DNA of 64,000 bases from Octopus vulgaris (taxonomy: Eukaryota): assembly GCA_951406725.2 (NCBI GenBank), contig OX597830.1, positions 63,922,001-63,986,000 of the forward strand. The letters run 5' to 3'. Below the pieces are notes generated by a model. The model had not been told where the DNA came from and did no database searches. It saw only the letters and a list, made by a program, of their open reading frames with translations. Positions 21,424 through 64,000 of this stretch are shown here, in pieces. Both the position numbers and the translations under genes were made by a program. The first letter of the stretch is position 1; each line of letters begins with the position of its first letter.

Positions 21424-21716
21424 GGCACTACTTGAGAACAGTGGTCCCGGTGCGCGCACTCGCGTAGTCGCGCATCCGCTCTTGCTAGTCGTGACTAGTC
21501 GATCCTACGACTGCTAGCAAAGTAAATAAAACACAAAATAAATAATTTTTTTACACAAAATAAATAAAACACAAAAAAACAAAGTAATTAATTTTTTAAA
21601 CAAAGTAAATAAAATACAAAAAAAAACAAAGTAAGGATCGACTAGTCATGACTAGCTGGCGCGGGTGCGCGAGTACGCGAGTGCGCGCACCGGGACCACT
21701 GTTCTCAAGTCGTACC
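21424..21716. mobile_element. Mutator-like MITE with ~83-bp GC-rich TIRs
   Basis: 21424-21506 is the near-perfect reverse complement of 21634-21716; GG...CC ends; 9-bp TSD ttaaaaaat / ttaaaaagt; A-rich internal repeats. Confidence 0.8.
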
Positions 21717-21869
21717 TTAAAAAGTTACATGAAATATATAATTAAAACTTAGAAATGAATATTCTTAAAATTCCGGGAGAGTGTCTATGTAAGGGAAATA
21801 ACCGGAGTGGCGCCCGGTGAAAGCGAGATAAGTCCTGGAAACTGACGGAGGGAAAAATTATCTCCAAAC

Positions 21870-23348
21870 ATGAACCGAAATGATGGAAGCGAACTGGTTA
21901 TTGGTGATCGTATCGAATGTGATGATTATTTTGGGACGATAAAATATATAGGAGAAGTTGACGCGATGGAAGGTGTTTGGTTTGGCATTGATTGGGACGA
22001 AATTCATCGGGGAAAACATGACGGAAGCTATAAAGGTAGGCGTTACTTTCAAGCAGGACATCCTAAATCTGGTTCGTTTATTAAACCAATAAAGGCTAAA
22101 TTGGGACAATCTTTCCCTGACGCTTACGTCTGTAAAGTTAAAGATGTTATTGATGTGCCTTCAAGAATTCTGATTCTCAATAATCATGCAATTTATGGTC
22201 TTGGTTCCCAGCAAGTGACCAGTCAGTTTTCGGCGATTGCCTCAAAAATAACAGAATTAGATCTTTCTGGTAATTTGTTGAAGAATTGGACTCAAGTTGC
22301 TGAAATTACTAACTTAATTCCTAATCTGTTGAAGTTAAATGTAAGTAATAACCGTTTAATAATTCCTGAACACGCGGAAAACTTGTCAAAATCTTTTGCC
22401 AAAGTAGAAGATCTGGTTTTAAACCGAATGAACTACGACTGGGTCGACATTTTATCTGCTACGTCGATGTTTCCGTCCCTTCGAGGTTTGTACGTGTGTT
22501 TTAATAATTTGGAAAAATTGGCTGATTCCACGGGGAAATTGACAAACCTGAAATTTCTCTCATTAATAGACAATCGCTTAAGTGACTGGAACGAACTTTT
22601 AAAACTTGGTCAACTTCCTCAATTGAGCACACTTTATGTAAATAACAATCAACTGACAGCCGTCTCCTTCAATGACGTACCTTTGGAAGACGGCGAGAAA
22701 ACCACATATTTTCCTTCTCTGAAGTGTTTAGATTTAAGCAGCAACCTCATCGATAACCTGTCATCAATCGATGAGCTTAGTAAATTAGCCAACCTTGCCG
22801 AGTTTTCTTTCCTTCATAATCCAGCAGCAGATATAGATGAGGACAAACTATTTAATTTGATAATTGCCAAAATTGGCAGTTTAAAAAAATATTCAAAAGC
22901 CGAATTCCTTGTCGAAGAACGGAAAAGTGCTGAAATATTTTATCTTCGCATGGTTGAGAAACAGGCATTAGAGAAAAATATCAGTGAAGAAGACACAGCT
23001 AAAACATGTTCAAGATACAAAGAACTGGTAAAGTTATATGGACATGCAAGTCCTGAATCATTAATAACCAAGACAACTGTTCTACGAGATAAATTAATTG
23101 CTGTTGACATTGAAACTGTTAATATTCCTGATAAAGTGTTCAAGAACAAGAAATTATCTCCAACCATGACCATTCTAAAACTGAAGTTACTTGTACAAAA
23201 ACTCTTTAAAATTCAAGAAATAACTAACCTAGAATTATCTTATATCAGTAAAAACAATTCTCAATTGGAAGTTCACTTAGAGAATGATTTGCATGAACTG
23301 TCGTTTTACAGTATAGAAAATGGTGATAATCTCGTTGCAAAATGGTAA
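21870..23348 (+). CDS. TBCE: Tubulin-specific chaperone E homolog, intronless CDS (492 aa: CAP-Gly, LRRs, LRR cap, ubiquitin-like domain)
   Basis: CAP-Gly GTIKYIGEV...GVWFGIDWD...RGKHDGSYKGRRYF...SGSF; LRRs (ITELDLSGNLL, LKCLDLSSNLI); ERxxAE cap; C-terminal UBL KKLSPTMTILKLK...LENDLHELSFYSIENGD..VAKW. Confidence 0.93.
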   Translation: MNRNDGSELVIGDRIECDDYFGTIKYIGEVDAMEGVWFGIDWDEIHRGKHDGSYKGRRYFQAGHPKSGSFIKPIKAKLGQSFPDAYVCKVKDVIDVPSRILILNNHAIYGLGSQQVTSQFSAIASKITELDLSGNLLKNWTQVAEITNLIPNLLKLNVSNNRLIIPEHAENLSKSFAKVEDLVLNRMNYDWVDILSATSMFPSLRGLYVCFNNLEKLADSTGKLTNLKFLSLIDNRLSDWNELLKLGQLPQLSTLYVNNNQLTAVSFNDVPLEDGEKTTYFPSLKCLDLSSNLIDNLSSIDELSKLANLAEFSFLHNPAADIDEDKLFNLIIAKIGSLKKYSKAEFLVEERKSAEIFYLRMVEKQALEKNISEEDTAKTCSRYKELVKLYGHASPESLITKTTVLRDKLIAVDIETVNIPDKVFKNKKLSPTMTILKLKLLVQKLFKIQEITNLELSYISKNNSQLEVHLENDLHELSFYSIENGDNLVAKW

Positions 23349-34483: not shown

Positions 34484-37228
34484 TTACCACTTTGCAATTA
34501 AACTATCGCCATTTTCTATGCTGTAATGAGACAGTGGCTTAAAATCATTGTCTAATTCAACTTTTACTTCAGGATTTTCTCTGCTGATATAAGATAGTTT
34601 TAGATTAGTCATTTCCTGAATTTTAAAGAGTTTTTGTACAAGTGACTTCAGTTTTAGAATGGTTATGTCTGGAGACAATTTCTTGTTCTTCAATACTTTA
34701 TCAGGAATATTATCAGTTTGGATATCAACAGCAATTAATTTATCTTGTAGCAGAATTGTTTTAGTTATCAATGATTCTGGACTCGCATGTCCATATTTCT
34801 TCACCAGTTCTTTGTACCTTGAACAGGTTTTAGCTGTGTCTTCTTCACCAATATTTTTTTCTAATGCCTCCCTCTCAACCATATCTAGATAATATACTTC
34901 AGCATTTTTCCTTTCTTCATCACGAATAAGGGTTTTATCATATTTTTTTAAACTGCCAATTTTACCAACGGTAATATAAAATAGTTTGTCCTTATATACA
35001 GCTCCCAATGGGTTATTTGCTAAAATAAGCTCAGTCAGGTTGGCCAGTTTGCTAAGCTCATCGATTGATGACCGGTTATTGATGTCATTCTTGTTTAAAC
35101 TTAGACATTCAAGAGAACGAAAATGTGATGTTTTCTTGCCATCTTCCAAAGATACGTCATTAAAAGAGACGGATGTCAATTGATTGTTATTTACGTAAAG
35201 TGTGCTCAACTGAGGAAGCTGACCAAATTTTAAAAGTTCATTTTCATCACTAATACGATTGTTTGACAATGAGAGGAATTTTAGCTTTGTCAATTTTCCT
35301 GTGGAATCAATAAATGTTTCCAAATTATTGAAACTTGCATACAAACGTTGAAGTGATGGAAACATTGATGTAACAGATAAAATGTTAGCCCAGTTATAGT
35401 CCATCCTGTTCAGAATAAGTTCTTCTACATTTGTAAAAGATTTTGCAAACATTTCTACATTTTCAGGAATTATCAAACGGTTACTACTTACATTTAATAG
35501 TATTAGATTAGGAATAATGTTAGCAATTTCCACAACTTGAGTCCAACTCTTCAACAGGTTAGTAGAAAGATCTAGTTCTGTTAATTTTGAGGCAATTGAC
35601 GAAAACTGACTGGTCACTTCCTGGGAACCAAGACCATAAACTCCATAATTATTGAGAAACAGAATTCTTGGAGTCATAATTAAAACATCTTTAGCTTTAC
35701 AGGCATAAGCATCAGGAAAAGACTGTCCGAGGTTAATGTGAAGTGGGTTAATAAAGGAACCAGATTTAGGATGGCTTGCTTGATAATAACGCCTACCTTT
35801 ATAGCTACCGTCATGTTTTCCCCAATGAATTTCATCCCAGTCAATGCCAAACCAAATACCTTCCATTGTGTCAACTTCTCCTATATATTTTATCGTCCCA
35901 AAACAATTCTCACTTTCAATACGATCACCAATAACCAGTTTGCTTCCATCATTTCGGTTCATATCTGGAAATAATTTCTTGTTTCTGATCATTTCTTCTG
36001 GAATATCACCATCTGTTAAATGACTTTGGAGGGAATGCTTTTCAGGATATTCATAACCATATTTCTGTCCAAGTTCTTTGTACCTTGAACACGTTTTAGT
36101 TAAGTCTTCTTCACTGATATTTTTCTCTAATGCCTGTTTCTCAATCATGCGAAGATAAAATATTTCAGCATCTTTCTGTTTTTCATCATGGATAATAGTT
36201 TTTGCATACTTTTTTAAACTGCCAATTTTGGCAATTATCAAATTAAACAGTTTGTCCTCATCTATATCTGCTGTTGGATTATGAAGGAAAGAAAACTCGG
36301 TAAGGTTGGCTAATTTACTAAGCTCATCGATTGATGACAGGTTATCGATGAGGTTGCTGCTTAAATCTAAACACTTTAGAGAAGGAAAATATGTGGTTTT
36401 CTCACCGTCTTCCAAAGGTACGTCATTGAAGGAGACGGCTGTCAGTTGATTGTTATTTACAGAAAGTGTGCTCAATTGAGGAAGTTGACCAAGTTTTAAA
36501 AGTTCGTTCCAGTCACTTAAGCGATTGTCTATTAATGAGAGAAATTTCAGGTTTGTCAATTTCCCCGTGGAATCAGCCAATTTTTCCAAATTATTAAAAC
36601 ACACGTACAAACCTCGAAGGGACGGAAACATCGACGTAGCAGATAAAATGTCGACCCAGTCGTAGTTCATTCGGTTTAAAACCAGATCTTCTACTTTGGC
36701 AAAAGATTTTGACAAGTTTTCCGCGTGTTCAGGAATTATTAAACGGTTATTACTTACATTTAACTTCAACAGATTAGGAATTAAGTTAGTAATTTCAGCA
36801 ACTTGAGTCCAGTTCTTCAACAAATTACCAGAAAGATCTAGTTCCGTTATTTTTGACGCAATCGCCGAAAACTGACTGGTCACTTCCTGGGAACCAAGAC
36901 CATAGATTACATAATTATCGAGAATCAAAATTCTTGAGCGCACATCTACGATATCGCCATGTTTACAGACGTAAGCGTCAGGGAAAGATTGTCCCAATTT
37001 AGCCTTTATTGGTTTAATAAACGAACCAGATTTAGGATGTCCTGCTTGAAAGTAACGCCTACCTTTATAGCTTCCGTCATGTTTTCCCCGATGAATTTCA
37101 TCCCAATCAATGCCAAACCAAACACCTTCCATCGCGTCAACTTCTCCTATATATTTTATCGTCCCAAAATAATCATCACATTCGATACGATCACCAATAA
37201 CCAGTTCGCTTCCATCATTTCGGTTCAT
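34484..37228 (-). CDS. TBCE: Tandem-fused TBCE homolog, intronless CDS, 914 aa: (CAP-Gly + LRR) x2 + one UBL
   Basis: Single open frame. Aa 1-422 are a TBCE unit truncated at the start of the UBL. Aa 423-914 (second MNRNDG, ATG at 35962) are a complete 492-aa TBCE colinear with the + strand gene. Confidence 0.92.
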   Translation of the reverse strand: MNRNDGSELVIGDRIECDDYFGTIKYIGEVDAMEGVWFGIDWDEIHRGKHDGSYKGRRYFQAGHPKSGSFIKPIKAKLGQSFPDAYVCKHGDIVDVRSRILILDNYVIYGLGSQEVTSQFSAIASKITELDLSGNLLKNWTQVAEITNLIPNLLKLNVSNNRLIIPEHAENLSKSFAKVEDLVLNRMNYDWVDILSATSMFPSLRGLYVCFNNLEKLADSTGKLTNLKFLSLIDNRLSDWNELLKLGQLPQLSTLSVNNNQLTAVSFNDVPLEDGEKTTYFPSLKCLDLSSNLIDNLSSIDELSKLANLTEFSFLHNPTADIDEDKLFNLIIAKIGSLKKYAKTIIHDEKQKDAEIFYLRMIEKQALEKNISEEDLTKTCSRYKELGQKYGYEYPEKHSLQSHLTDGDIPEEMIRNKKLFPDMNRNDGSKLVIGDRIESENCFGTIKYIGEVDTMEGIWFGIDWDEIHWGKHDGSYKGRRYYQASHPKSGSFINPLHINLGQSFPDAYACKAKDVLIMTPRILFLNNYGVYGLGSQEVTSQFSSIASKLTELDLSTNLLKSWTQVVEIANIIPNLILLNVSSNRLIIPENVEMFAKSFTNVEELILNRMDYNWANILSVTSMFPSLQRLYASFNNLETFIDSTGKLTKLKFLSLSNNRISDENELLKFGQLPQLSTLYVNNNQLTSVSFNDVSLEDGKKTSHFRSLECLSLNKNDINNRSSIDELSKLANLTELILANNPLGAVYKDKLFYITVGKIGSLKKYDKTLIRDEERKNAEVYYLDMVEREALEKNIGEEDTAKTCSRYKELVKKYGHASPESLITKTILLQDKLIAVDIQTDNIPDKVLKNKKLSPDITILKLKSLVQKLFKIQEMTNLKLSYISRENPEVKVELDNDFKPLSHYSIENGDSLIAKW

Positions 37229-39617: not shown

Positions 39618-39630
39618 AATTAATATTATC

Positions 39631-39830
39631 ATTTCCTCAATTTTATGAAAGCAGAATAATTACCTGTTTAAAGTTATCATAGACAGGAATGTATTAAAGC
39701 CAGAATTACCATTTTGCAATTAAACTATCGCCATTTTCTAAGCTGTAATGAGACAGTGGCTTAAAATCATTGTCTAATTCAACTTTTACTTCAGGATTTT
39801 CTCTACTGATATAAGATAGTTTTAAGATTA
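39631..39830 (-). pseudogene. TBCE: Third TBCE copy, 3' remnant (last ~40 codons plus 3'UTR)
   Basis: LKLSYISRENPEVKVELDNDFKPLSHYSLENGDSLIAKW* (stop 39706-39708); nearly identical to ~34408-34608. Confidence 0.9.
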
Positions 39831-42195: not shown

Positions 42196-44074
42196 TAGCA
42201 GCATAGCCCGGCGTTGCCCGGGTATGTAAGAGCCCCTAGTAGGCAACGACTAATCCCAATCTAGTCCTTTCCCTCTAGGGAACGAAGGCGCATGTGTAGG
42301 TTTCAATGTCTTCTCTTCACTCCCAAATAACTATCAAACAGCTATCGATAATTCAACCCAACCAATTCCTACCAGGAAGAAATTACATTCGAGACTTTAC
42401 CCCCAACACCGCCACTTCTGCTAATAGCTGCTGCAGCCGCAAGTTATTCGAATACTTTTTTTGTTTAAACTTTCTTTATAACTACCACCCCAAACGTTTT
42501 ACCTTAAATTTTTGACGTACCCTAAGGGTCCTCGGACGCTACTTGCAAACTCTTGGTTTATTATAAACCGCTTTTGTCGTGTGCACCAAAAAACTTTTTC
42601 CATTCGTTTGTTCAGTTTGGTCACTTTTGACTTTTTCGTTGTTGTCACTCACATTGCTGCCCGCTTTTTTTGCCGTTTTTGTACATTTTTATACATTTTG
42701 GGATACTTACCCCACGTGTTCCGAGAGTTAAAAAGGTCGAGTTGCGTACCCTAGACAGTCTGTAGAAAATGTGTTTAATACACAAATCGGTTTGCTATGT
42801 GTGCCACATATAATAATAATGAAATTAATTGTATACAGTGCTCAGGTGCACCACAACTTGTCAGAAAGTGCATATAAAGTACATGCAGTAATGTACAAAT
42901 GTCTGGAAAGTGAACAGTGTATGAGTCAGATACATGCTTGTGTGTGTATGGAGGGGAGAAAATCAGGTGTAGTGTTGGCAAATCTCAGGAAGCATGGAAG
43001 TTTTGAAGGATGCAGTGCTCCGACAACTAACAACTGATGCCGGCAGTTTGTTCCATGCTTCAGCAACTCTCAGCGTGAAAAAATGTTTCCTGAAGTCATG
43101 GGAGCTGTGCTGTTTTCTTACTTTGTAAATATGTCCACGGGTGTTAGATGGGTGGAGTTTGAAAAGGTGCTCAGAGTTATTGTTTGTACGATGGTTGATA
43201 ATTTTATGGGTGTCTGCCAAGTCAGCTGCCAGACGTCGGAGTTTCAATGTGTCCATGCCCAGGGAAGTAAGGCGTTCAGGATATGGCAAATGCCTGATGG
43301 AGGGTATTCTTTTGGTTGCACGTCGCTGAACAGCTTCCAGACGATTGATATCCTGGGCAAGATAGGGATTCCAGACCGGTGATGCAAATTCCAGGTGAGG
43401 TCTTACTATAGCTATATAAAGCCGCAGATAGATAGCCGGAGAGCGGCTCACAAAGGATTTGGTGAGTGATGCCAAGACACCCTCAGCCTTCTTGACAATT
43501 TTAGCGATGTGTTTTGTCCAACGCAAATCACTGTCGACAATAACACCCAGGTCACGTTCAACCGATTTTTTCCAGTAATAAAGTATCCTATTGGAATAAA
43601 AAGGGCCATATAGCTCCTTGGAGCAGATACGATGCTCGTTGTGAATTTAAAAAAAAATTCCTGCCAATTCGTGAAAGATATTGTCGAAAATACGTCATCT
43701 TGAATTTGAACGCGATTTCCCAAAATGGCATGATTTTATCGATTTTTTCTGATGGTAAGGTATTGCATGGAAAACTAACGTCAGAATTAAGTTTCTTAGG
43801 GTAACATTAAGCTTCACCATGAGTTTGGTGAAAATCGATTGCAAGTTGCGAAAACTACAACAGAAAATGTGTTGCATATAAAAAGCTTAGATTCTCGACC
43901 CCATGTCGAATTTATCGATTTTTTCAGAACTGGGGGAACTTTTCAAAATTTTCGCTGCGTTAGTTTTGAATTATGACATTGGGCTATGTGTGTGTCAAGT
44001 TTCATCAGAATCGGTTGAAAGCTGTGGTCAGGGTGAGGGTACAACCTGACAGACACACAGACAGACAAACTGCC

Positions 44075-46841: not shown

Positions 46842-47562
<721 letters not shown>

Positions 47563-48417
47563 TGCATGTTAATACATAGGAGTTAATAAATATGTTTGCG
47601 TATGTATGAGTTACACACACATATCAAAAGAATAATCTTTTCTACTCTAAGCATAAGGCCTGAAGGTTTTGGGGAGGGGACCAGTCGATTAGACCGACCC
47701 CCAGTACGCAACTGGTACTTAATTTATCGACCCCCAAAGGAGGAAACGCAAAGTCGATCTCGGCGGAATTTGAACGCAGAACGTAAAGACAGACGAAATA
47801 CTTATTTCTTTACTACCCACAAGGGGCTAAACACAGAGGGGACAAACAAGGACAGACAAAGGGATTAAGTCGATTACATCGACTCCAGTGCGTAACTGGT
47901 ACTTAATTTATCGACCCCGAAAGGATGAAAGGCAAAGTCGACCTCAGCGGAATTTGAACTCAGAACGTAGCGGCAGACGAAATACGGTTACGCATTTCGC
48001 CCGGCGTGCTAACGATTCTTATTTCTTTATTGACACGTGTGTCAATAGCCAGCTGGAGGAGGTGTCCTCCTGGGGCTACAAGCTACAGTAGCATCCACCC
48101 GTATGGGTTAGCCACATTTAAGTGGCAAATGTACTTCATGATGTCGTGCAGCTACTGTTCATACCTCCCTCAGAGATTTATTATTGCTCATATATATATA
48201 TATATATATATTGTCCGAGTCAGACGCCATGATAGATCGTTAGCCACTACACACATGTTTTTCTCTCCTTGTTTTCTATGTCCCTTTCTGTAGAAGAGCG
48301 TAGGCTCGAAACGTTAAACCCTCTTTCTTTCCTTCTTCCCTGAGCGTCCAATAATACTATATTTGTTCCACGTCCTCACGTTGTTGTGTTTTTTTTTTTG
48401 TGCTTTCTTGTTTGGAT

Positions 48418-50233: not shown

Positions 50234-50529
50234 TGTACACACACGTATATATATATATATATACGTATACTCACATAAATATTTATATACATATCCACAC
50301 ACACACACACACACACACGCATACACACACATGTCATGTGTATGTTAATAAGTGAAATGATATATTTAATTAATTCATTAATAGTTTGGTGTCATTAACT
50401 ACCGCCTATCTATTATTCATTTATTTATTTATTTTTGAACTTTCATTAGATCTGTTCCGCACTGGGTTTTCGGAATCTGGTCCTGAATTGTATGTCTCTG
50501 TTATACAATTTATCTACGTATTCCTATAC

Positions 50530-50653
50530 ATTGTATGCATGCATGTATGTATGCATGCATGCATGCATGCATGCATGTATGTATGTATGTATGTATGTAT
50601 GTATGTATGTATGTATGTATGTATGTATGTATGCTTGTATGTATGTATGTATG

Positions 50654-50687
<34 letters not shown>

Positions 50688-50872
50688 TGTATGTATGTAT
50701 GTATGTATGTATGTATGTATGTATGTATGTATGTATGTATGTATGCTTGTATGTATGTATGCATGTATGTAACTGTTATGTATGTATGTATGTATGTATG
50801 TATGTATGTATGTATGTATGTATGTATGTATGTATGCATGTATGTATGTATGTATGCATGTATGTATGTATG

Positions 50873-50906
<34 letters not shown>

Positions 50907-51084
50907 TGTATGTATGTATGTATGCATGTATGTAACTGTTATGTATGTATGTATGTATGTATGTATGTATTATGTATGTATGTATGTATGCATGTATGTA
51001 TGTATGTATGCATGTATGTATGTATGCATGTATGTATGTATGTATGTATGTATGTCATTATTCAGTTTTATTTCAATATTTCTT

Positions 51085-51149
<65 letters not shown>

Positions 51150-51485
51150 GGTTTCTAACCTAGATCCAAGATTCCTTCATTGGAAGTTCAACATCAACAA
51201 CAATGTATTTTTGTATGTATGTATATGTATAGATTTATGTTTTACTTTATGTATGTATGTATGTATGTATGTATGTATGTATGTATGTATGTATGTATGT
51301 ATGTATGTATGTATGTATGTATGTATGTATGCACGTATGCATGCACGTATGTATGTATATATGCATGCACGTATGTATGTATGTATGTATGTATGTATGT
51401 ATGTATGTATGTATGTATGTATGCATGCACGTATGATTGTATGTATGTATGTATGTATGCGCGTACATAGATACATGTATGTATC
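50530..51485. repeat. (TATG)n and (GA)n microsatellite field
   Basis: Directly visible. Confidence 0.95.
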
Positions 51486-51576
51486 TATATTCCAGGTATG
51501 ACTTTAAACTGCATCCGGGTTCTGATTTGGGTGTTCCGGGGATTTGAGGAGTGTGGTCCCATTCCTTAGCTACTAT

Positions 51577-58682: not shown

Positions 58683-59069
58683 TACTTACGACAGTATAAG
58701 GACCTAAAACAATTACTCGCTCGCAGATGACAGCTGTCTCTACTTTTACGTACCCACACTTACGCGTGCGCGCACGCACACACACAATACACACACACAC
58801 ACAATACACACACACACACACAATACACACACACACAAGTAGGCATTCATATATATATATATTCTTTTATTCAATTACTCGTTTCAGTCATTTGACTGCG
58901 GCCATGCTGGAGCACCGCTTTTAGTCGAGCAAATCGACCCCAGGACTTATACTTTGTAAGCCTAGTACTTATTCTATCGTTCTCTTTTGCCGAACCGCTA
59001 AGTTACGAGGACGTAAACACCCGCATCGGTTGTCAAGCGATGGTTGGGGAGACAAACGCAGACACACGA

Positions 59070-59305
59070 GCATACATACATACATACATACATACATACA
59101 TACATACATACATACATACATACATACATACATGCATGCATGCATGCATGCATACATATATACATACATACATACATACATACATACATACATAACATAC
59201 ATACATACATACATAACATACATACATACATACATAACATACATACATACATACATACATGCATACACGCATGCATGCATACACACATACATGCATACAT
59301 ACATG

Positions 59306-59337
<32 letters not shown>

Positions 59338-59540
59338 CATACATGCATACATACATACATACATACATACATGCATGCATACACACATACATACATACAT
59401 ACATGCATACACGCATGCATGCATACATACATACATACATACATACATACATACATGCATACATACATACATGCATACACACATACATGCATACATACAT
59501 ACATACATACATGCACACATACATACATAAATATATATAT
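59070..59540. repeat. (CATA)n expansion inside a family-B SINE
   Basis: SINE halves flank the ~470-bp microsatellite. Confidence 0.9.
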
Positions 59541-59838
59541 AGGACGGGCTTCTTTCAGTTTCCGTCATCCAAATCCACTCAGAAGACATTGGTCGGCCCC
59601 AGGCTATAGTAGAAGACACTTACCCAAGATGTCACGCAGTGGGACTGAACCCGGAACCATGTGGTTCGTAAGCAAGCCTCTTACCACACGGCAACTCGTA
59701 CGCCTATATAAGCATACGTATATGTATGCATGTATGTATATTTTCATATATTTGTACATGCATGTGTATATATCTGTATGTTTGTGTGTGTACGTGCATT
59801 TATGTATGTATATATACATATGTATGTATATACACGTG

Positions 59839-59910
<72 letters not shown>

Positions 59911-60934
59911 CATATGTCTGTCTCAAGCGAATTCTTTGAATTTAATTTGCATATATGTAACATTTTTATAATTTCATTAACTGCGTGGCACCTTAGGCAA
60001 GTATCTTCTGCTATAGCCACGGGCCGACCAAAGCCTTGTGAGTGGATTTGGTAGACGGAAACTGAAAGAAGCCCGTCGTATATATGTATATATATGTGTA
60101 TTTGTGTGTCTGTGTTTGTCCCCCTAGCATTGCTTGACAACCGATGCTGGTGTGTTTATGTCCCCGTTACTTAGCGGTTCGGCAAAAGAGACCGATAGAA
60201 TAAGTAGTGGGCTTACAAAAAAAGAATAAGTCCCGGGGTCGAGTTGCTCGATTGAAGGCGGTGCTGCAGCATGGCCGCAGTCAAATGACTGAAACAAGTG
60301 GTCCCGGCACTTACAATAAATGAATAAAATAAAAATGAAAATAAATAAATAAAACTTTTCACTCTCCGTTTCATCTAGAAAGCTCGTCCCGAAACCCGAA
60401 AAACCCCTGGAAAAGGGGGCGGAGACAAATAATTTATGCAGCATATATTAAACACTTCCTCCAACTGCCTTTCTTCTACTACTTCTCCTACTCCCCCTCT
60501 TGCCCTCCTTCTTTCTCACTAAAACTAACAGATTTTCTTGGAATTTTTCAGAAATGAAACTAAAAAGCAATGTTTCACGGAAATTCATAAATTTACTGTT
60601 CATTTATAATATAAAAGTATCCGTACAACATCACATTCATGATTGTAAGTCGTAATTATGACGAACTCGGAAAAAATGACTGCGGATGAGTCGGAACCTT
60701 CTTCTGAAATGATAACCAGCAAGGTATATATGTATTGTATATTATTTCTCTTTGCTATCTGCGCTGTTCAATTCCTTTCTTTCGGAGTTTGTTTGGAATT
60801 ATATTTATATTATAGGGATTCTTGCTTTTGTTCTTTGATTTCTAAGCGGTGGGGGTTTGAATTAAGGCATTTTTCTCTTCTCTCTATCTCTCATTTAATT
60901 TGTTTTCGTCTGTTCTTTTTATGATACAATAGGG

Positions 60935-64000
<3,066 letters not shown>

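Follow-up and report, generated by a model that had tools for sequence, protein, structure and literature searches.

A single-unit TBCE gene of Octopus vulgaris and the first unit of a neighbouring double TBCE gene have almost certainly undergone recurrent gene conversion outside two short patches, as judged from the sequences of three Octopus species. The explanation that we favor, with moderate confidence, is that the two copies are older paralogs that repeatedly exchanged their CAP-Gly and LRR regions, and that the patches stayed specific to each copy, likely through selection against conversions carrying the predicted hinge residues of one copy into the other. This explanation includes the reading of the patches as hinges and of the first unit as a second arm. 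The window, that is, the whole stretch of DNA that was analyzed, comprises 64,000 nucleotides.

The TBCE locus

The locus contains three TBCE-like units in two genes. The single gene (M) and the double gene (units U1 and U2) are in convergent orientation and form inverted arms approximately 15 kb apart. The canonical TBCE gene has many exons. The genes and their parts are as follows:

21870..23348, forward strand: monomer TBCE gene M, a single intronless ORF of 492 aa (ORF list, Pfam, and structure matches)
34484..37228, reverse strand: double TBCE gene (U1+U2), a single intronless ORF of 914 aa
35963..37228, reverse strand: unit U1 of the double gene (aa 1-422), with CAP-Gly, LRR, helices, and linker and without a ubiquitin-like domain
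34484..35962, reverse strand: unit U2 of the double gene (aa 423-914), a complete 492-residue TBCE colinear with M
39627..39830, reverse strand: orphan duplicate of the U2 3' end, comprising the last approximately 39 codons and 3' flank, 96.6% identical

The domain order of M is CAP-Gly, LRR, a predicted three-helix bundle, and ubiquitin-like domain. U1 is fused in frame to U2 (junction 35963/35962), and the identity of U2 to M is approximately 82% in nucleotides and 73% in amino acids. Counterparts of 492 and 914 aa were found in the protein collections of O. sinensis and O. bimaculoides, and the window proteins share 98% identity with those of O. sinensis. Argonauta has a relative of 490 aa.

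Judged by the CAP-Gly domain, LRR with helical bundle, and ubiquitin-like domain, M and U2 are TBCE. M matched human TBCE of cryo-EM entries by sequence (9m1k_E, E 3.6e-71), and Foldseek aligned the model of M to 9m1m_E with a TM of 0.71. Pfam placed CAP-Gly (PF01302) above the cut-off once in M and twice in the fused protein. LRR matches were present as well, and M and U2 keep residues R351 and E355 of the ER-x-x-AE motif that follows the LRR. The ubiquitin-like domain of M and U2 matched 1wjn and 4icu, while PF14560 in U2 (21.3 bits) was just below its cut-off of 23.1. By the same features, U1 alone is a TBCE-derived arm and no complete TBCE, as it stops where the ubiquitin-like domain would begin and carries Q351 in 3/3 Octopus species. 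R351 was present in 153 of 154 named single-unit TBCEs, and position 350, which is K or V in U1, was E or D in 152 of them. At codon 47 of U2, in the CAP-Gly motif (35822-35824, reverse strand), the window has R47W, either a variant or a sequence error; this arginine is present in 150/154 named TBCEs, as well as in U2 of O. sinensis and O. bimaculoides.

M and U2 are alike to the canonical TBCE of TBC-DEG, the chaperone that TBCE forms with TBCD and Arl2 (human 9m1k/9m1m chain E), in all domains, R351, and E355. In contrast to it, the octopod proteins are shorter by approximately 34 residues in the CAP-Gly-LRR linker and by 8 in the helical bundle, the octopus locus has three units, and the 914-aa protein joins two CAP-Gly-LRR arms to one ubiquitin-like anchor. 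The linker span S69-L136 measures 67 residues in octopus, compared to 99-102 in each of the 29 listed TBCEs from molluscs other than cephalopods; the median of the 154 named single-unit TBCEs is 96. An earlier note, made from the window alone, had placed an apparent shortening of a longer conserved linker at the first patch, and the shortening is real. Of 174 named proteins, only the three from Octopus and a partial 670-aa record from a fish had two CAP-Gly-containing matches. A weak search of longer proteins for further double TBCEs gave only the Octopus cluster, and no full double TBCE was present among the longer matches in the best 150 representatives. No canonical long-linker cephalopod TBCE was named among the best 120 of 581 matches to gastropod TBCE, so M and the double gene may be the sole TBCE genes of Octopus.

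Homology between the flanks of the arms is limited to approximately 90 nt on the 5' side (common to M and U1) and 65 nt on the 3' side (common to M and U2). Several other elements were observed in the surroundings. The orphan end of U2 lies 2.4 kb upstream of the fused gene and is either a recent partial duplicate or the remnant of a fourth unit. Approximately 150 nt upstream of M, two 83-nt inverted arms (21424-21506 and 21634-21716) are 90% identical and separated by a short A-rich spacer; this element, which we take to be MITE-like, has no counterpart before U1. A reverse-transcriptase ORF remnant (PF00078, 28086-29117) is located between the arms, and its inverted partner (42961-43559, 80% identical) beyond the fused gene. 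The segments 46848-47586, 50492-51501, and 58969-64000 consist of large, strongly strand-skewed arrays of low-complexity repeats, which resemble one another and occur in either orientation.

Near-identical tracts and divergent patches

The near-identity of M and U1 with two divergent patches, described in the earlier note, is confirmed, and all six peptide strings quoted there were found exactly. The boundaries required correction: dense divergence in patch 1 extends to 22193 instead of 22260, and identity resumes in the second tract at 22287. The M-U1 alignment is divided as follows:

21851..22136, forward strand: converted tract 1, the last 19 nt of the 5' flank of M and CAP-Gly, with 1 difference to U1 (in 21870-22136)
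22137..22193, forward strand: patch 1 of M (codons 90-108, 57 nt), differing from U1 at 16 nt and 8 aa; 6 residues paralog-fixed in three species
22194..22286, forward strand: patch 1 shoulder, with 4 synonymous and 1 non-synonymous difference between M and U1
22287..22889, forward strand: converted tract 2 (LRR core), with 349 nt identical to U1 (22287-22635), then 7 scattered differences (22636-22889); contains 7 of the 8 species-shared residues
22890..22928, forward strand: patch 2 of M (codons 341-353, 39 nt), with 14 nt and 9 aa differences to U1; 7 paralog-fixed residues
22929..23057, forward strand: partly homogenized stretch (codons 354-396), with 16 differences; ends where U1 becomes its linker
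36905..36961, reverse strand: patch 1 of U1, from the M-U1 alignment
36170..36208, reverse strand: patch 2 of U1, from the M-U1 alignment

The 5' edge of patch 1 is abrupt (22136/22137). Uniform divergence along the alignment, which the earlier note had named as evidence against its proposal, was not found: neither the 349-nt run nor the density of 16 differences in 60 nt was reached in any of 100,000 permutations. Within codons 1-340 alone, the clustering had p=1.1e-4 for the run and <1e-5 for the density. At the sites where M and U1 differ, M agrees with U2 at 11/16 in patch 1 and 12/16 in codons 354-396, and the sharing of bases with U2 that had been noticed in patch 1 and the C-terminus is thereby verified. 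The majority pattern in patch 2 is U1=U2 (8 of the 14 differing sites). In codons 354-396, dS(M,U1) is 0.16 versus a dS(M,U2) of 0.48.

Gene conversion across three species

M and U1 of the window were compared with those of O. sinensis and O. bimaculoides, with proteins only for the latter two. Eight residues (26, 148, 218, 220, 226, 233, 271, and 282) are common to M and U1 within a species and differ between species; all are outside the patches, in CAP-Gly or the LRR core. A ninth, R376, is common to both O. bimaculoides copies and lies behind patch 2. Twenty residues are paralog-fixed in the three species, namely six in 90-106, seven in 344-353, one at 362, and six in 387-394, with none in the 307 codons of 1-89 and 109-326, nor from there up to 343. 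Among the 75 variable sites of M/U1, 45 are in neither class and 4 are window-specific captures. Shared and fixed residues are separated with a Fisher p of 1.2e-5, for segments that were chosen post hoc from the window's own sequence.

Tree comparison revealed the same division. For the core (322 columns), the AU test rejected the paralog tree (p-AU 0.0012), with a core tree bootstrap of only 53-82; for the patches (31 columns), both species trees were rejected (p-AU 3.7e-6 and lower). Gene conversion between the inverted arms, as proposed in the earlier note, is borne out by these tests and by the cross-species site patterns. In codons 140-255, 0/77 synonymous sites differ between M and U1, and the dS to U2 is 0.66. 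The dS(M,U1) of the patches is 0.53, approximately as old as the M-U2 split (dS 0.42). Because the patches are paralog-fixed across species, both loci predate the speciations, and M and U1 are, by this pattern, paralogs older than the split of the three Octopus species.

The extent of homogenization varies. Of 321 core residues, 4 distinguish M from U1 in the window, 14 in O. sinensis, and 29 in O. bimaculoides. Long identical stretches are also present in O. sinensis, and conversion is, on the protein records, much weaker in O. bimaculoides. U2-type residues in M (A192, N193) and U1 (A192, Q205) of O. sinensis are possibly short conversions from U2.

GC-biased conversion is suggestive only. 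The third-position G/C excess in M is 39:20 in the converted zone (p=0.018) and 8:9 in the ubiquitin-like domain, and the contrast between the zone and this control domain was not significant (p=0.17). The CpG count in codons 109-341 (22194-22892) is 23 in M, 24 in U1, and 11 in U2, which fits either GC-biased conversion or CpG decay in U2.

Probable selection on the patches

Selection on the patches is likely, since neutral models seldom reproduce the islands. Two paralogs were simulated on a three-species tree with neutral substitution and conversion, using crude models with parameters of our own choice. Without a heterology block, an interior island was obtained in ≤1/400 runs (12 settings), in 0/200 with a fast patch (8 settings), and in 0/150 when rates were set per lineage to approach the observed cores (9 settings). 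A mismatch block gave an island in up to 13/150. When the block was combined with four times faster patches, patch 1 was reproduced in up to 30/100 and both patches in up to 7/150; an island in which one copy stayed the same across species was obtained in ≤1/100. The claim of the earlier note that selection keeps the patches distinct thus probably stands, as the neutral models rarely give both islands.

The patch dN/dS is 0.39/0.53, estimated on approximately 21 synonymous sites. Positive selection on the patches is not shown because this ratio is below 1; for the same reason the case is one of selection against conversion and not of diversifying selection, and the description of the patches as specificity sites is not shown either. 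Between the window and O. bimaculoides, the changes in patch 1 number 0/19 in M (p=0.40 vs background), 4/19 in U1, and 8/19 in U2 (p=0.0002, fast), and those in patch 2 number 5/13 in M (p=0.003, fast), 1/13 in U1, and 1/13 in U2. Accordingly counted, the mean ortholog divergence of M and U1 is near background in patch 1, while in patch 2 it is raised in M and not in U1. Patch constraint is, by these counts, reciprocal between the copies. Within patch 2, a burst of changes was observed at M codons 345-348 (22902-22913), where the window and O. sinensis have D345E, R347L, and D348V relative to O. bimaculoides.

A neutral origin of the islands is the first alternative, and we regard it as unlikely. 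It accepts the conversion and holds that two fast surface segments gained mismatch early, in part because U1 was less constrained once truncated, and that this mismatch now stops conversion tracts mechanically. The location of patch 1 in a low-confidence loop at an old deletion site agrees with this, as do its abrupt 5' edge, the fast patches of U2 and M, the dN/dS below 1, and the frequency of patch 1 in block models with fast patches. However, both a heterology block and four-fold faster patches are required, and the two islands together are still rare in such models, as is an island with one copy unchanged. In the sequences, little or no change separates the species in U1 patch 2 and M patch 1, and almost every family member retains R351.

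Teshima and Innan reportedly described, in 2008, a divergence-peak signature under gene conversion. The octopus locus displays what their criterion describes, a paralog-fixed cluster amid species-shared sites that is unlikely in neutral simulation. At the peak residues, R351Q and the place in the predicted structure point to a putative functional difference.

Direction of exchange and origin of the double gene

Window U1 contains M-type D31 and V36, which are absent from U1 of O. sinensis and O. bimaculoides; this points to a recent M-to-U1 event after the O. sinensis split. Conversely directed, F38 and I74 in M of the window and O. sinensis look U1- or U2-derived. Judged by the polarizable residues, exchange between M and U1 went in both directions. 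M and U2 share the derived residues Y26 and D31, which suggest M-U2 exchange near the N-terminus as well.

In the version derived from the earlier note, M was a unit-2-type gene whose N-terminal and LRR regions had been overwritten by U1, with the patches as partner-specificity sites under diversifying selection. The base sharing with U2 in patch 1 and codons 354-396 favors this history, together with the low M-U2 synonymous divergence in patch 1 (0.5 of 13.8 sites), the common Y26 and D31, and the 3' flank of U2 in M. We nevertheless consider it improbable. In the ubiquitin-like domain, where U1 could not act, dS(M,U2) is 0.37, not distinctly lower than the 0.42 of the whole gene. The patch tree slightly prefers (U1,U2), with AU values of 0.86 for this grouping, 0.16 for (M,U2), and 0.15 for (M,U1); none of the three is rejected. 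M also has the 5' flank of U1, as expected of an intact ancestral gene, and the clearest recent event is the one from M to U1 at residues 31 and 36. Moreover, the Argonauta relative is similar to M and U2 in patch 1, so the change there took place in U1 and the M-U2 base sharing is mostly ancestral, and dN is not above dS. With the groupings inseparable and exchange in two directions, the unit-2 origin of M is not upheld.

The order of the three duplications could not be taken from the patch tree, because the AU test rejects none of the three groupings. We discounted a GENECONV-like run of M-U2 identity at 22138-22149 (5 sites, uncorrected p=0.007), which chiefly mirrors clustered changes in U1.

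We infer a simpler history, in which M would be the intact gene with both ancestral flanks and its inverted twin would have been internally duplicated. A candidate site for this duplication is provided by two short segments of M:

21855..21873, forward strand: half of a 19-nt match in the start-codon region, with 18/19 bases equal to 23151-23169
23151..23169, forward strand: internal half of the match, at codons 428-434 and the start of the ubiquitin-like domain, corresponding to the position where U1 is cut and U2 joined

None of 5000 shuffles reached the score of this match. Weaker similarity extends approximately 30 nt further upstream, and the fusion junction is at 35963-35980. The match is a candidate microhomology for the internal duplication; it could also postdate the fusion. 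In the first step of the proposed mechanism, an intronless short-linker TBCE would have been duplicated in inverted orientation. One copy would then have been internally duplicated, probably by unequal crossover at the 18/19-nt match between the start codon and the start of the ubiquitin-like domain, to yield an in-frame fusion of a truncated U1 with a complete U2. In the second step, M and U1 were homogenized piecemeal, in both directions and in each lineage, as shown by the sequence patterns; the putative route is pairing of the inverted arms.

Unlikely alternatives: assembly artefact and absence of exchange

A merging of the arms during assembly or polishing, which would make the identical tracts an artefact, is very improbable. 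The copies in the window are more alike than those of O. sinensis or O. bimaculoides, and the window-specific N-terminal identity alone could be such an artefact. Nevertheless, the same patches recur in the records of two other species, each with shared residues of its own, and the arms keep scattered differences inside the tracts as well as distinct flanks. Consensus collapse, the other finding that the earlier note had thought able to overturn its proposal, is thus unable to explain the data; an artefact could add to the extra identity of the window but could not yield the cross-species pattern. A history without exchange, in which purifying selection on TBCE, a conserved chaperone, acted together with parallel substitution, or in which separate recent duplications occurred in each species, can be dismissed with near certainty: synonymous sites are identical too although orthologs differ at 18/201 core residues, eight shared species-specific residues are too many for parallelism, the paralog-fixed patches place both loci before the speciations, and the AU tests refute it.

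A predicted two-armed chaperone

The AlphaFold2 model of M has a mean pLDDT of 89.7. Patch 1 covers a low-confidence loop (91-99) and the first LRR strand, at the site of the cephalopod linker deletion. Patch 2 runs from the last part of the LRR into the beginning of helix 348-368 and includes R351, the residue that is Q in U1. This helix is the first of three predicted helices (348-390) before the ubiquitin-like domain. The patches are therefore predicted hinges, one between CAP-Gly and LRR and the other between LRR and the three-helix bundle, with the assignment of helices 348-390 to this bundle being by our own mapping rather than by residue numbers of the published structures. In the model of the fused protein (pTM 0.49), two folded units are separated by a disordered linker (393-420), and no contacts were reported.

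In the available text of two structural reports (PMC12881605, PMC13155304), the ubiquitin-like domain of TBCE anchors on TBCD, CAP-Gly and LRR bind alpha-tubulin, and the LRR-CAP-Gly arm pivots on the three-helix bundle, which touches TBCD H26 and beta-tubulin. Side chains at the joints of this swinging arm are poorly resolved in cryo-EM, according to the same text. Applied to the octopus proteins as the third step of the mechanism, M and U2 would retain the ubiquitin-like domain that anchors on TBCD, and U1, without an anchor, would hang on its flexible linker as a second CAP-Gly-LRR arm. Conversion in the core may be tolerated because the alpha-tubulin-binding parts of U1 and M do the same job. 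At its two joints, CAP-Gly/LRR and LRR/three-helix bundle with its pivot on TBCD, the arm would work in a different context in U1. A U1 patch in M would then be damage, with R351 and E350 lost, while the U1 version is itself conserved.

A more specific function can be offered only tentatively. In such a two-armed octopus chaperone, U2 would act as a normal TBCE in TBC-DEG, and U1 would be a tethered arm that captures or pre-loads alpha-tubulin. Conversion would keep the surface of U1 in step with M, and the patches would couple the arm to the TBCD power stroke.

Comparison with known systems and significance

Divergence peaks in duplicates under conversion have been described in human red/green opsin exon 5, RHD/RHCE, and the Drosophila Pre28 pair CG18281/CG17637 (PMC3924837, PMC2588116). 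As far as the accessible text of these papers extends, the octopus locus resembles them in that clusters of paralog-fixed (type-N) sites, with species-shared (type-C) sites on either side, recur at one position across several species; as in Pre28, there are two peaks, which neutral simulation seldom gives. The octopus peaks differ in being far shorter (39-57 nt) and inside one intronless ORF, and in involving three units in two genes, one of which is a fused dimer. Unlike in Pre28, ortholog divergence appears not to be flat in octopus, as M patch 2 and U2 patch 1 are raised, and the criterion used for Pre28 is therefore weakened here. The paralogs GOT1p1/GOT1p2 of the copepod Tigriopus californicus, studied with population data, also have divergence islands amid ongoing conversion (PMC3728101). 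They are likewise housekeeping-gene paralogs of an invertebrate, but no fused double protein is described in the accessible part of that paper.

No description of a two-armed TBCE or of an octopus TBCE locus was found among the titles and abstract starts of the open-licence literature. The evolutionary signature is already known; the octopus case stands apart by where it occurs, in a housekeeping chaperone that is intronless and has a conserved fusion with two arms. This conserved 914-aa architecture was not found outside Octopus among the proteins searched, nor in print.

The locus provides a compact three-species example of divergence peaks in a core cytoskeletal chaperone. The residues that would not tolerate exchange are located at two predicted joints of the swinging arm seen by cryo-EM. 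If selection does hold the patches, the locus would represent a natural mutational scan of TBCE, which separates exchange-tolerant from exchange-intolerant residues in anchored and unanchored arms.
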